Assembly (NCBI GenBank): GCA_964636555.1
Contig: CAZWRZ010000013.1
Location: forward strand, 116-64,115
Source: an uncultured Ruminiclostridium sp.
GTDB taxonomy: Bacteria; Bacillota; Clostridia; Oscillospirales; Ruminococcaceae
Reading direction: 5' to 3'
DNA: 64,000 bases
Shown here: positions 10,048 through 59,073 of the stretch, in pieces
How the letters are laid out: each line of letters starts with the position of its first letter
How positions within the stretch are numbered: the stretch's first letter is position 1
Translations under genes and position numbers: made by a program
The notes under the pieces: generated by a model
Database searches by the model: none
What the model was told of the DNA's origin: nothing
The model's input: the letters and a program-made list of their open reading frames with translations, nothing else

Positions 10048-10233
10048 TTTATCTTCCTTATATTTTTGTGTTGTTAAAAGTTGTTTTTCTCAAATGAGCA
10101 TCTTATCTCATTATCTGTATTATTTTATCACAATAGAGTTATAGTGTCAAGGGCTTGTGTTTTGACCTTGCCCTTTTATTGCATATCTTCTATACCTTCA
10201 TTTATCTTTATCTTCGCATATATTTACATATCG

Positions 10234-14305: not shown

Positions 14306-14354
14306 TTTCTTTTTTCCTCTTGACAAAGGGTTTATTTTAAGGTATAATATAAAC

Positions 14355-14448
14355 ATAAAAAGAGGGCGGCAGGCAGTGCCTCCGCTTCTGAACAGTTAAT
14401 ATCTTTTAATAACTGCCTAAGGCGTCAACATTAGGGCAGTTATTTTTT
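14355..14448 (+). ncRNA. Antisense antitoxin RNA of type I TA module 1
   Basis: TTGACA(14320)-17-TATAAT(14343); terminator AATAACTGCC...GGCAGTTATTTTTT overlapping the toxin stop on the other strand. Confidence 0.75.
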
Positions 14449-14544
14449 ATTACTCTTGAAGTACCCAAGAGCAAGAAAAACTACTGTAACAACTTCTATC
14501 AAAAGAGACAGAAGCTGAAGTAACTCATTTAATGTTATGTATAT
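14440..14544 (-). CDS. Type I toxin-like hydrophobic peptide 1 (34 aa, ATA where the paralog has ATG)
   Basis: (I/M)YITLNELLQLLSLLIEVVTVVFLALGYFKSNKK; GGGGGTGA SD; promoter -35 14715-14720, -10 14692-14697; colinear with peptide 3. Confidence 0.7.
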   Translation of the reverse strand: MYITLNELLQLLSLLIEVVTVVFLALGYFKSNKK

Positions 14545-14745
14545 TTCTCTCACCCCCTTTCAGTAATAGTATAGGATATTTGCGTGCTGTTCCAAGGAAC
14601 AGCGTTATTACTGATCAGAAGCTTTAAAAACAATTACCCGCCGCCTGAGGTTCGCCCTCGGTGGTACTCCCTGAAACGGTTTCCCAAGGCTATTATAATA
14701 TAATTTTCACAGTTTGTCAAATTGTGTCAAGGCATAAGGAGCGAT

Positions 14746-15210
14746 ATGGAACAGGCTTTTTACAAAACAAAATTCGGCAATATCAAAATAGAATATGAGG
14801 GCAATATGCTGTTTTCATTAAAGACCGTTGGGGAAGCTTCGGGGAATGGCTTGAGAACAGAGTTTACCGATAAGGTTTTCACACAACTCGAGGAGTATTT
14901 CATCGGAACAAGAAAAAGCTTTGACATACCCTACAGGCTCACGGGAACGGAGTTTCAGCTAAAGGTATGGCGGGAGCTGGAAAAAATACCCTACGGAAAT
15001 ACCAAAACATACAAGGAAATTGCGGACGGCATAGGGAGGAGCAAGGCAGTAAGAGCGGTAGGAAGCGCCTGCGGTAAAAATCCTGCTTGGATAATAGTCC
15101 CATGTCACCGGGTGATTGGTTCCGACGGAAAACTGACAGGTTATGCAGGCGGTGTTGATATGAAGGGAGAACTGCTTGAAATAGAGAAGCATAGTTCCGC
15201 AAATAATTGA
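14746..15210 (+). CDS. ogt: Methylated-DNA--protein-cysteine methyltransferase
   Basis: GTEFQLKVW, IPYG, AVRAVGSACGKNP, PCHRV active site. Confidence 0.95.
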   Translation: MEQAFYKTKFGNIKIEYEGNMLFSLKTVGEASGNGLRTEFTDKVFTQLEEYFIGTRKSFDIPYRLTGTEFQLKVWRELEKIPYGNTKTYKEIADGIGRSKAVRAVGSACGKNPAWIIVPCHRVIGSDGKLTGYAGGVDMKGELLEIEKHSSANN

Positions 15211-15327
15211 CAAATTTTGAAATTAGGGATATAATTATAAACGAGGAAACCAAAGACGATAGGCGGTTAATAATGCTCCCGGACAGCAAGAAACATCATG
15301 CGCTGTCTTAAAAAGGGGGTGATAGGA

Positions 15328-15429
15328 ATGGGCTATTACATAACTATGTCTGATTTGATTCAGATGTTGACGCTTATATGCGTGATAATAGAACTGATAC
15401 TATCTATTCGCAAGAATACAAAAAAATAA
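15328..15429 (+). CDS. Type I toxin-like hydrophobic peptide 2 (33 aa)
   Basis: MGYYITMSDLIQMLTLICVIIELILSIRKNTKK; GGGGGTGA SD; promoter TTGACA(15207)-17-TATAAT(15230). Confidence 0.8.
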   Translation: MGYYITMSDLIQMLTLICVIIELILSIRKNTKK

Positions 15430-15505
15430 TCGCCTCAACTTGCAACTAAGGGCGATTATTTTTATTTAAAAACGTTCAAGGGAGCAACCGTCTATCGGTT
15501 TCCTC
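15421..15505 (-). ncRNA. Antisense antitoxin RNA of type I TA module 2
   Basis: Minus-strand TTGACT(15534-15539)-16-TATAAT(15512-15517); terminator AATAATCGCC...GGCGATTATTTTTT. Confidence 0.72.
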
Positions 15506-15554
15506 TTTTTTATTATAGTATCTTTTCGAAAAAAGTCAAGTGCTTTTCAGAAAA

Positions 15555-20799: not shown

Positions 20800-21140
20800 A
20801 CAAAACCCCCCAACAGAAAAATCTGTCGGAGGGCGAATCAACTCGCGGTACCACCTCGGTTTACGGCAAAAGCCGCCTCATTAACGGCGGGAATTTCAAA
20901 GGAGCTTTGATTTTTCAAAAATCAAAAATATTCCTCACCGCTTTAAGCTGTAACGGGCTTACCCGTATTTTGCTATTGCAATGCCTTTATCGGGCTGTTA
21001 TCGGCAAGCCACGGCACCCTTTCTCACAAAATCACTCGGAAATGTATTTCGCCGCCTTACGCCGCCCTTTTCCACCTGCCAAGGGCTCTCTGTGGGTTTA
21101 TCTCGGTTACTTCTTTTCCTCATCGTTTTACTGTGTATTA
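20800..21140 (-). promoter_or_regulatory. T-box riboswitch, Tyr specifier
   Basis: AGAGA and GGTGGAA stem I motifs, GAAA-TAC-A specifier (21044-21046), T-box GAGGTGGTACCGCG (20844-20857), terminator with U tract; promoter TTGACA(21169-21174)-17-TAAACT. Confidence 0.92.
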
Positions 21141-40269: not shown

Positions 40270-40737
40270 TTGTAAAACCGCCGGCGATGTAGTATAATAA
40301 CCTTTGCACGATTGCGGATCGGTATGTCCGATTATGCCTAAAAAGGCATAAGACAAGCGTGCGGCACTGCTTGATAATGCGTTGAAGCCGTAGGTTGCGT
40401 TTGCCGTGACTTATAACCTATTCCACGGTAAAACGGGAATTTCGGCGGAGTATGTCCGGTTTAAAATCGGGCGAAAATAAAGCATTACAAGACCGTTCCA
40501 ATAAAAACAGGCGTTCGGAAAGCAAGGGAAGGACCCGCAAAGGCGGATACCCCCTAAAAGAATTTTTCCGAGCGAGTTTTACGGAAAAGGTTGAAACACT
40601 CGGTTGCGTGTGCTTTATGGCGAGAGAGTTTCAAGGCTTCGGGCTGCTTGCGTTAGCCTGAAAAATAAAACCTCCGCTTATCACTGCATTTATGCAGATG
40701 CTTTCACAATTCATTCTATGAAAGGAGTTAAGGAAAC
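40270..40737 (+). promoter_or_regulatory. S10 operon promoter and about 430-nt structured leader
   Basis: TTGTAA(40270)-17-TATAAT(40293); several hairpins and long-range CTTGATAATGC/GCATTACAAG pairing. Confidence 0.65.
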
Positions 40738-57350: not shown

Positions 57351-57683
57351 ATGAGAAAACTTGGAAGAACAAGTGACCATAGAAAAGCAATGCTCAGAGC
57401 AATGGTAACATTTTTGCTGGAAAACGGCAAGATCGAGACCACCGTTACAAGAGCAAAGGAAGTAAAGAGCGAAGCTGAGAAGATGATCACCCTCGGTAAG
57501 AACGAAGATCTTCACAGCAAGCGTCAGGTATATTCCTACATCACCAAGGAGGCAGTCAGCAAAAAACTTTTTGACGAGATTGCTCCCAAGTATAAGGACG
57601 TTAAGGGCGGCTATACCAGAATCGTAAAGATCGGACCCCGCCGCGGAGACGCAGCTGAAATGGCTATCATTGAGCTGGTTTGA
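57351..57683 (+). CDS. rplQ: 50S ribosomal protein L17
   Basis: [25 protein letters not shown]. Confidence 0.98.
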
Positions 57684-57706
57684 TTTCCTTATTGTAACTA
57701 AAAACA

Positions 57707-57735
57707 GCAGCCGTCTTTTGGGCGGCTGCTTTTGT
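57707..57735 (+). terminator. Intrinsic terminator of the alpha operon
   Basis: GCAGCCGTC-TTTT-GGGCGGCTGC followed by TTTT. Confidence 0.85.
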
Positions 57736-57811
57736 TGTGGGCGATATTGCTTTTTCAAATTTTCGGTATGGAGCTGTTGACAAAGAAAAGAAAAAGCAGT
57801 ATAATAAAATA

Positions 57812-57900
57812 AAAGAGGGGCAACAGGTGTTGTCACTCCCGATTTAAGTTATGAAAAATAACCGACTTTCGTTTTGGACACGGGAAGGCGGTTATTTTTT
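57812..57900 (+). ncRNA. Antisense antitoxin RNA of type I TA module 3
   Basis: TTGACA(57777)-17-TATAAT(57800); AATAACCG...CGGTTATTTTTT terminator overlapping the toxin stop. Confidence 0.78.
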
Positions 57901-57996
57901 ATTGTTTTTAAAAGTACTAAAAACAAGGAAACATACACCGATGACTTCACATAAAAGTAAAAGTATCTGAATCAAATCTGATAACGATATGTACAT
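57892..57996 (-). CDS. Type I toxin-like hydrophobic peptide 3 (34 aa)
   Basis: MYISLSDLIQILLLLCEVIGVCFLVFSTFKNNKK; AGGGGGTG SD; promoter -35 58148-58153, -10 58125-58130. Confidence 0.82.
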   Translation of the reverse strand: MYISLSDLIQILLLLCEVIGVCFLVFSTFKNNKK

Positions 57997-58205
57997 TCCC
58001 CCACCCCCTTTTTATGGCAAAGTGTTTCCACCTTGCACGGGAGTGTTATTAACAATCACCTATCGCCCACCTGAGGTTTATCCCCTCTTAGGTGAGGTCA
58101 CCCAAGAGGGTTTCCTCAGTATCTATTATATATTGTTATTGGCATTTTGTCAAATTTTAGATATTAAGCTGTTGACAAATTGATGAAACAGGTGTAAAAT
58201 TAAAA

Positions 58206-58295
58206 TATTAAATGTTATGTACATCTCCTAATTAAAGGAGAATCACCCTCAATAACCGCCATTGTACTCTAAAGCACAATGGCGGTTATTTCTTT
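58206..58295 (+). ncRNA. Candidate trans-acting sRNA complementary to toxin translation-initiation regions
   Basis: TTGACA(58172)-17-TAAAAT(58195); AATGTTATGTACAT and TCACCCTC seeds split by a CTCCT/AGGAG hairpin; 15-bp terminator stem 58251-58290. Confidence 0.6.
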
Positions 58296-58305
58296 ACACC
58301 CATAC

Positions 58306-58557
58306 TTAAAACAAAACAATCGCCAAAACAACACCTCCAGCCAGCAAAACACACCCCAAAACAATAAGCCCGATTTTAACTCTTCGTCTTTTATTGAACC
58401 CGTCCATTCTTACTGCCGACAACAGCCTTTGAGCGTTTTCGTTCAGCTGGCTCTGGTCGGCGTTCATTTTTTCAGGCCTTAAAAACAAGATCGCTCTGTC
58501 AAAAAACTCGTTTTCTGTATTCTTTATCTCCAAAATAAGCTTGTTGACCCCTCGCAT
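58306..58557 (-). CDS. Hypothetical protein with a C-terminal TM anchor
   Basis: 83 aa, GGAGG SD, hydrophobic tail. Confidence 0.75.
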   Translation of the reverse strand: MRGVNKLILEIKNTENEFFDRAILFLRPEKMNADQSQLNENAQRLLSAVRMDGFNKRRRVKIGLIVLGCVLLAGGVVLAIVLF

Positions 58558-58638: not shown

Positions 58639-59073
58639 GTTTTCCACAGGTTTTCCCGTGGAAAATGCGGAAAACTGACCTTTTTAACTGACTTTGACTA
58701 ATTTTTCTGTGGAAAACTTCGTGGAAAAAGCTGAAAACCCTTAATCCAAGCCTAAAATTTCTTCACGGGTTTTTGAACGATAATTTACCGAAATTTACTT
58801 AAAGATAGATTCTTTTATCCGAGGAAAATGAAAATTACTTTATTATAGAAAATAATGCTTAAATGATTTCTGTCCGATTACGATTTAAAGCCTTTTGTAA
58901 AATTCAACAAAATGATAAATAAACGGCATAATATACTTAACGTGTATTATGCCGTTTACAATCTGTAAAATCCTGTTTTCCACAGGTTTTCCCGTGGAAA
59001 GTGTGGAAAAGTCGGGGTTTTCACTGATTTTTACTGTCCAAACTGTGGAAAAGTCGGTGGAAAATGTTGAAAA
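58639..59073. promoter_or_regulatory. DnaA-box-like cluster (two groups flanking an AT-rich spacer)
   Basis: Five perfect TTWTNCACA matches (58640, 58708, 58976, 59002, 59044) plus several 1-mismatch boxes; 26-bp direct repeat at 58639 and 58975. Confidence 0.7.

Follow-up and report, generated by a model that had tools for sequence, protein, structure and literature searches.

Introduction

Is a short candidate RNA gene that stands back to back with a type I toxin gene a second antitoxin, acting in trans on a family of toxins, or is it the debris of a decayed toxin-antitoxin (TA) module? This question is raised by the spacer between rplQ and ORF83 in a 64,000-nucleotide stretch of DNA from an uncultured Ruminiclostridium sp. 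(contig CAZWRZ010000013.1), which was analyzed as a whole and is referred to here as the window. The two genes are convergent (rplQ, 57351-57683, plus strand; ORF83, 58306-58557, minus strand, a gene for an 83-aa tail-anchored membrane protein), and the 622 nt between them hold TA module 3. A sequence-only reading of this DNA had proposed that a second RNA of about 90 nt, encoded next to module 3, is the master antitoxin of a two-tier system that covers three dispersed toxin paralogs.

ORF83 itself is a conserved protein of 81-85 aa with a C-terminal membrane anchor and 47 homolog clusters; it matches no Pfam, NCBIfam or PHROG family, and in some relatives it adjoins gltB, not rplQ. Its homologs, together with the MAG records in which related toxins occur, indicate an uncultured gut bacterium of the Oscillospiraceae/Ruminococcaceae. 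Upstream of ORF83, at 58640-59060, there is a cluster of DnaA-box-like motifs, comprising five TTTTCCACA and several CGTGGAAAA variants, arranged in two similar blocks (GTTTTCCACAGGTTTTCCCGTGGAAA...); the rest of the window holds at most 2 such motifs per kb. This stretch could be a DnaA-box cluster or a DnaA-regulated promoter.

Organization of Module 3

Module 3 is made up of the following features.

57777..57805, plus strand: promoter of the cis antitoxin, TTGACA-17-TATAAT, 12/12, kept in relatives
57812..57902, plus strand: AT3, predicted cis antitoxin RNA (~90 nt), with a 5' hairpin carrying the anti-SD-like UCACUCCC (57833-57840), followed by the terminator
57851..57900, both strands: hairpin, bidirectional terminator common to AT3 and the toxin 3 mRNA
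57892..57996, minus strand: toxin 3 ORF, 34 aa, MYISLSDLIQILLLLCEVIGVCFLVFSTFKNNKK, with paralogs and homologs found
57997..58118, minus strand: toxin 3 5' UTR (~120 nt), with the SD GGGGGUGG (58008..58001) and an internal anti-SD CACUCCC (58045..58039)
58125..58153, minus strand: toxin 3 promoter, TTGACA-17-TATAAT, 12/12, back to back with the promoter at 58172-58200

As the sequence-only reading had it, module 3 has the look of a type I TA module: its promoters converge, one bidirectional terminator serves both transcripts, and its peptide of 34 aa is hydrophobic with a KK tail. The toxin 3 peptide ends in KNNKK at its C-terminus. The terminator at 57851..57900, ~50 nt, is the sole cis overlap between AT3 and the toxin 3 mRNA, and the 5' domain of AT3 is identical in relatives at 35-37 of 39 positions. 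In the predicted fold of the toxin 3 mRNA, the SD is base-paired to the upstream CACUCCC, that is, it is already sequestered.

Paralogous Modules and the Toxin Family

Two further modules of the same kind lie in the window.

14320..14720, both strands: module 1, with antitoxin promoter 14320-14348 (plus), toxin 1 ORF 14544..14440 (minus) and toxin promoter 14720..14692 (minus)
15207..15539, both strands: module 2, with toxin promoter 15207-15235 (plus), toxin 2 ORF 15328-15429 (plus) and antitoxin promoter 15539..15512 (minus)

The toxin is present in three copies of 33-34 aa, all with a TM-like core and KK tail and preceded by a GGGGGUG SD and a 12/12 promoter. At the sequence level, a convergent 12/12 promoter and a common terminator make the two RNAs overlap by ~50 nt in each of the three modules, as in relatives. 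Toxin 1 has ATA (14542-14544, minus strand), where its paralogs and its ortholog at locus L005 have ATG. The lone in-frame start of toxin 1 is a GTG within the SD. An identical ATG-to-ATA change is found in the toxin 2 ortholog of L077 (~1331-1333), and start-codon loss looks like a recurrent silencing route for these toxins.

Each cis antitoxin carries an anti-SD-like stretch, and the AT3 copy, UCACUCCC (57833-57840), is invariant in relatives; because of this stretch, the cis antitoxins may act on the ribosome-binding site too. The cis antitoxins (57812-57841, 14355-14390 and 15505..15470) and the 5' ends of the toxin mRNAs open with a similar same-sense GAGG..hairpin..CUCCC.

The toxins match no Pfam, NCBIfam or PHROG family, and neither Pfam nor NCBIfam gives an Fst/Ldr family match at E <= 10. 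A profile built from the three toxins retrieved 27 clusters at 50% identity from 1.84 billion representative proteins, and toxin-profile scans of genome and metagenome collections yielded just 7 and 5 loci, respectively; at none of these 7 + 5 loci does an anti-TIR unit adjoin the toxin. Related modules, some of them tandem, occur in Oscillospiraceae, Ruminococcus and Ruminiclostridium MAGs, and a tblastn search of plasmid and phage records with the consensus toxin gave no match. The three modules thus represent a putative type I toxin family of gut Oscillospiraceae that has gone unannotated and, judged by sequence, stands outside every described family. Whole TA modules are tandemly duplicated, in near-identical copies, at L006 (3095-3313) and L081 (1-560).

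A Second Candidate Unit Beside Module 3

Between the toxin 3 promoter and ORF83 lies a further unit with the following parts.

58172..58200, plus strand: promoter of the second RNA, TTGACA-17-TAAAAT, 11/12, a paralog of the antitoxin promoter
58207..58296, plus strand: sRNA2, predicted RNA of ~90 nt, with seed 1 (58211-58224), a mini-hairpin (58225-58240), seed 2 (58243-58250), a terminator and a U-rich tail
58251..58290, hairpin without assigned strand: ATAACCGCC...GGCGGTTAT, of the module-terminator type, 15 nt from the stop of the convergent ORF83

The promoter of the second RNA is divergent from that of toxin 3, and their -35 boxes (58172-58177, plus strand, and 58153..58148, minus strand) are separated by 18 bp. 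With at most one mismatch, TTGACA-N17-TATAAT occurs at just 9 sites on both strands of the window (128 kb), and 6 of these 9 fall in the three TA modules. The hairpin has 15 bp and a predicted energy of -22.8 kcal/mol; it is followed by UUUCUUU on the plus strand, the U-tract on the minus strand is poor (UUAUUGAGG), and it probably ends transcripts of both strands. A simple terminator scan missed it, presumably since an A.C mismatch gives the loop an apparent length above 8. The whole 90-nt sRNA2 is predicted to fold at -30.5 kcal/mol with a CUCCU/AGGAG mini-hairpin and a free 5' end. Thus far the sequence-only reading was accurate: the divergent promoter at 58172-58200 and the terminator that it had assigned to a ~90-nt RNA are present, and so, in the predicted fold, is the mini-hairpin that it had placed between the seeds.

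Self-comparison of the window reveals only one such chimeric unit. Searches of Rfam at the gathering score and at E <= 10 returned nothing relevant for it, the weak matches being at chance level; the OrzO-P match, located elsewhere, scored 18 bits where the gathering score is 60. Elsewhere in the window, Rfam matches comprise a T-box leader (20826-21132, minus strand) and an S10-Clostridia ribosomal protein leader (40374-40477, plus strand). Two other strong promoters, at 10150 and 10701, were considered as a fourth module and rejected, as an ordinary XRE-type regulator lies between them. The idea that the hairpin preserves a "KK-stop" remnant of one more toxin gene was likewise dropped, since the likeness is that of the T-run of any terminator. 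The palindrome ATGTACAT is present in both the toxin 3 start (57989-57996) and seed 1 (58217-58224), and therefore each RNA could pair with itself or with a second copy there.

Pairing with Toxin Start Regions

On recount, the base-pair numbers of the sequence-only reading proved exact. Seed 1 pairs with toxin 1 over 11 bp (UACAUAACAUU), with toxin 2 over 8 bp (UACAUAAC, position +9 to +16) and with toxin 3 over 9 bp (AUGUACAUA), and UCACCCUC forms 8 bp with each toxin SD, including G.U pairs (5-6 Watson-Crick). The pairing of sRNA2 spans the SD and codons 1-5 of the toxins. The duplex energies for toxins 1, 2 and 3 are -26.4, -25.0 and -28.9 kcal/mol, against a shuffle mean of -14 to -17 kcal/mol; in 1000 dinucleotide shuffles, 1, 17 and 6, respectively, do as well. 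Among 73 other start regions in the window the best value is -22.3 kcal/mol, and none reaches those of the toxins.

When the cost of opening the full 5' UTR structure is counted, pairing goes mostly through the start-codon seed, and the net gain is -12 to -13 kcal/mol versus -7 to -8 in shuffles; this net binding energy is matched by 5-14 of 200 shuffled controls (2-7%). For AT3, which has just the 8-nt anti-SD motif, the duplex with the toxin 3 TIR comes to -17.8 kcal/mol, the background being -13 +/- 3. Overall, the pairing of the two seeds with the SD and first codons of all three paralogs exceeds chance. An exact 15-mer search with seed 1 in viral contigs gave 44 matches, all of them set aside as unrelated coding sequence by context.

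Origin of the Unit and Forms of the Locus in Relatives

The body of sRNA2 coincides with a remnant of a toxin gene on the opposite strand.

58150..58250, minus strand: toxin-gene relic, with the SD-like GAGGGUGA, an insert of ~13 nt and an ATG at 58224 opening MYITFN..., 24 codons

In a self-BLAST of the window, 58146-58207 aligns at 77% with 57751-57811, the region of the antitoxin promoter, and self-comparison identifies 58207-58227 as antisense to the opening codons of toxin 1. Read on the minus strand, the relic consists of GAGGGUGA, ~13 nt extra and then ATG TAC ATA ACA..., which correspond to the toxin SD and first 8 codons; because of the insertion, the relic SD is 18 nt from the ATG. 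Judging from these homologies, the unit 58172-58296 is a chimera left over from a further copy of the type I TA module, inserted with module 3.

Syntenic loci, gathered via ORF83 homologs, take several forms. The chimera is kept in L016, L019, L025, L082 and L083, where the minus strand reads GGGGGUGA, 17 nt and MYITLSDLM, and then runs directly into an antitoxin-type promoter. Variant X3 keeps the relic too, and the ORF83 proteins of relic-keeping variants are 82-92% identical to that of the window where measured. A second form (L010-12, L013-15 and contigs of runs X4, X5, X6 and X11) has an intact antitoxin promoter, antitoxin, terminator and toxin codons ~8-34 set directly on the same hairpin; in L013 this truncated module is seen contiguously. 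In runs X3, X4, X5 and X11, the sequence past 58181 is an intact antitoxin promoter and antitoxin with a 5'-truncated toxin. The truncated module follows a complete one in X4, X5 and X11 and is therefore a second, tandem module. In L010-L015 the hairpin is kept beside ORF83 though the seeds are deleted. In addition, L086 has no module and an 88-nt spacer, L022-24 have a 217-aa gene at the rplQ/ORF83 position, L031 has a 198-aa gene with module debris, and in L001 a terminator-type hairpin immediately precedes the SD of a full-length toxin. The rplQ/ORF83 spacer (57684-58305) is an insertion hot spot for the gain, duplication and decay of modules.

In view of the syntenic states in relatives and the homology of the pieces, the simplest history would be that a second module once adjoined module 3 and that its toxin was killed by different deletions in different lineages. 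In the lineage of the window, a deletion would have fused the antitoxin promoter, close to its start site, with the beginning of the toxin gene in antisense, running from codon 9 back to codon 1 and on to the SD. The 3' part of the fused unit would be a module-type hairpin that also ends ORF83. As the alternative to a functional RNA, the sequence-only reading had named a decayed fourth toxin gene; it was right about the origin, the seeds being the antisense of the relic SD and codons, but such an origin does not exclude an RNA from the plus strand.

Conservation of the Element

Between the window and L016, the seeds defined by the sequence-only reading, which were taken as an a priori class, are identical at 20/22 positions and the rest of the 5' domain at 16/38 (Fisher p = 0.0003). 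In the comparison with the L016 group, the conserved parts are the -35, seed 1 (13/14), seed 2 (6-7/8) and both terminator arms (13-14/14), and the diverged parts are the promoter spacer (8-10/17), the leader (5/20), the inter-seed spacer (11/18), the loop (5/12) and the tail. All versions agree in the 12 nt of the relic that are antisense to codons 1-4; in the live toxin 3 gene, these codons are identical at just 8-9/12 positions. Of the 5 SNPs in the RNA of the X3 variant, none affects a seed and one turns a C-G of the stem into U-G.

The promoter has fared differently. It is near-consensus in the window and apparently in X3 as well, but in L016, L019, L025, L082 and L083 the -10 is TGTAAT, with G at the key second position, and a promoter scan of these five variants did not call it while calling the two neighboring 12/12 promoters. 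Strains with an apparently intact toxin 3 (ORF without indels) have a different remnant at this position and no seeds, and the element is therefore dispensable. At this locus, at least five other sequence variants retain the relic; the toxin loci examined elsewhere lack such a unit.

RNAalifold detected no compensatory pairs or covariation in six versions, of which only about two are independent. The conservation of the seeds mirrors that of the SD and MYIT in the live toxins, and could therefore be explained by gene conversion or shared ancestry instead of selection acting on the RNA; the resemblance of codons 5-7 of the two versions to different live alleles (TFN versus TLS) suggests gene conversion. 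The toxin 3 ORF shares ~58-64% nucleotide identity with those of L016 and L019 (peptides MYISLSDL.., MYVTFNDL.. and MYLTLTDL..), whereas its flanks (antitoxin 5' domain, distal 5' UTR and promoters) are 80-97% identical. This divergence relative to the flanks suggests allele swapping or diversifying selection on the peptide.

Expression

RNA runs that bear the same organism label contain nothing from the region. In one metatranscriptome, contigs from relatives cover rpoA, rplQ, the antitoxin and, weakly, the toxin, and none reaches 58102-58397; a run search with the element sequence alone found no run. No public run holds RNA of this strain, and therefore the expression of sRNA2 is judged on the quality of its promoter and terminator only.

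Possible Function of the Second Unit

The reading that accounts best for these data, and to which we give about an even chance of being correct, is that sRNA2 is an expressed, accessory anti-start-site RNA that arose from module decay in this strain. The DNA itself shows its starting points, namely what each piece is homologous to, which forms relatives carry at this position and what the RNA could pair with; from the sequence we further infer that sRNA2 is transcribed and represses the toxins. The near-consensus promoter and strong hairpin would yield an RNA of ~90 nt, and its single-stranded 5' 44 nt would pair with the SD and start-codon region of the paralogous toxin mRNAs, best with those of toxins 1 and 3. 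This pairing would hinder 30S binding at the toxin start sites. Both par RNA II and Sok block initiation through start-region pairing. sRNA2 would be an accessory, redundant, trans-acting antitoxin beside the cis antitoxins, and would not be required. A precedent is orphan orzP, which was left after toxin loss and is still expressed in E. coli MG1655 (PMC11264685). Several observations count against this reading: the RNA searches yielded nothing from the element, five variants have a TGTAAT -10, strains with an apparently intact toxin 3 do without the seeds, the versions show no compensatory changes, the seed conservation has other possible causes, the SD is sequestered in the predicted toxin 3 mRNA, and 2-7% of shuffled controls attain the net binding energy. 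A bolder form of this proposal, which we regard as tentative and somewhat unlikely, is that toxin-gene decay has made a new kind of antitoxin, in which a reversed ribosome-binding site and first codons serve as a trans RNA against the whole family. If this is true, sRNA2 matches the most conserved part of the toxin family and would therefore protect against any paralog, including newly arriving copies.

The main rival, a serious possibility that nevertheless falls short of an even chance, is an inert fossil: debris of the neighboring module, with a hairpin kept for ORF83 termination and a fading promoter, any RNA from which would have no effect on the toxins. Several observations favor it: the position is highly plastic, L086 lacking any module and L022 and L031 carrying other genes, two deletion products keep different toxin parts (codons 1-9 here; ~8-34 in L013 and X4), the -10 has mutated to TGTAAT in five related sequence variants, the hairpin persists next to ORF83 where the seeds are gone, and the six versions show no covariation and the element no RNA matches. 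It accords less well with the near-consensus promoter of the window and apparently X3, with differences between versions that avoid exactly the seeds and the terminator stem, with relic codons 1-4 that are more conserved than those of the live toxin 3, and with the survival of the relic through ORF83 divergence down to 82%. A dedicated master trans antitoxin, needed to silence all three dispersed toxins as the sequence-only reading had proposed, is distinctly unlikely. Complementarity beyond chance to the SD and start region of all three paralogs, the single such unit in the window and a divergent layout like that of istR, ohsC, orz and agrB (PMC4147584) speak for it. Yet every module comes with a cis antitoxin of its own, whose conserved 5' domain holds an anti-SD motif, toxin 1 lacks an ATG, toxin modules elsewhere (L001-L007 and L077-L081) have no such partner, other strains apparently keep toxin 3 without the seeds, and the promoter, with its TGTAAT -10 in five variants, is decayed in most relatives. 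An obligatory role is unlikely because of these cis antitoxins, the missing start codon of toxin 1, the partnerless family loci and the relatives that lack the element, and the two-tier proposal emerges weakened. Finally, the minus strand might be the relevant one, with read-through from ORF83 giving a short hydrophobic peptide (24 aa here) and the plus-strand RNA acting as its cis antisense. The ORF at 58224..58150 does begin with MYIT like the toxins, after the SD-like GAGGGUGA, and the poor minus-strand U-tract of the hairpin makes read-through conceivable; but the length of the peptide and its sequence past codon 4 are not conserved (24 aa here; >50 aa in the L016 type), the SD is 18 nt from the ATG, and there is no promoter of its own, which makes this explanation extremely improbable.

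Comparison with Known Type I Systems

Judged by layout, the toxin family is closest to par (RNA I/RNA II) among type I systems. As in par of pAD1 from Enterococcus faecalis (Fst RNA I/RNA II), the toxin and antitoxin RNAs converge on a common bidirectional terminator (PMC4147584), and in par repression consists of pairing over the ribosome-binding region of the toxin (PMC4147584). The differences are that the toxin here has no match to the Fst Pfam family and that par RNA II alone carries both the terminator overlap and the anti-TIR repeats, whereas here the cis antitoxin carries the overlap and a separate, divergent unit the clear anti-TIR sequence. According to a 2014 review, all Gram-positive type I systems described by then overlap at their 3' ends (PMC4147584). 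In Bacillus txpA/RatA and bsrG/SR4, the 3' overlap is ~75-120 nt long and extends into the toxin ORF (PMC4147584), whereas that of module 3 is ~50 nt and comprises essentially the terminator and 9 nt of the ORF.

In its short sRNA gene placed back to back with a toxin promoter, and in its limited complementarity, the second unit resembles IstR-1/tisB, OhsC/shoB, Orz/zor and AgrB/dinQ of E. coli (PMC4147584). However, IstR-1, OhsC, Orz and AgrB pair within a long 5' UTR, off the start site (PMC4147584), whereas sRNA2 would cover the SD and codons 1-5; unlike them, it coexists with a 3'-overlapping cis antitoxin, in a Clostridia genome, and has no Rfam match. Orphan orzP, found at "orz-only" loci of E. 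coli, is likewise an antitoxin-type RNA gene that remains after toxin loss (PMC11264685), but it is an intact antitoxin and is transcribed, whereas the body of the predicted sRNA2 is a piece of toxin gene read backwards.

Described cases in which a single antitoxin affects more than one toxin are limited to cis overlap (PMC5848175) and weak cross-regulation (PMC6393307). In B. subtilis, the type I antitoxin SR6 (yonT/yoyJ) serves two adjacent genes through cis overlap (PMC5848175); in S. aureus, paralogous SprF/SprG pairs show weak cross-regulation at the RNA level, and SprF neutralizes only its cognate toxin (PMC6393307). Unlike the proposed sRNA2, neither SR6 nor SprF is a TIR-directed trans RNA for dispersed paralogs.

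Implications

The rplQ/ORF83 hot spot lets the gain, duplication and decay of TA modules be followed strain by strain. If the bolder proposal is true, sRNA2 would be the first case, among Gram-positive type I systems, of a trans-encoded and TIR-directed antitoxin that accompanies one in cis. If sRNA2 is made and active, it would extend those systems by an antitoxin that is encoded in trans and aimed at the start site. It would also illustrate a simple birth route for regulatory RNAs, in which a deletion puts the start region of a dead toxin behind an antitoxin promoter, and it would show how a genome with a multi-copy toxin could gain cross-protection.
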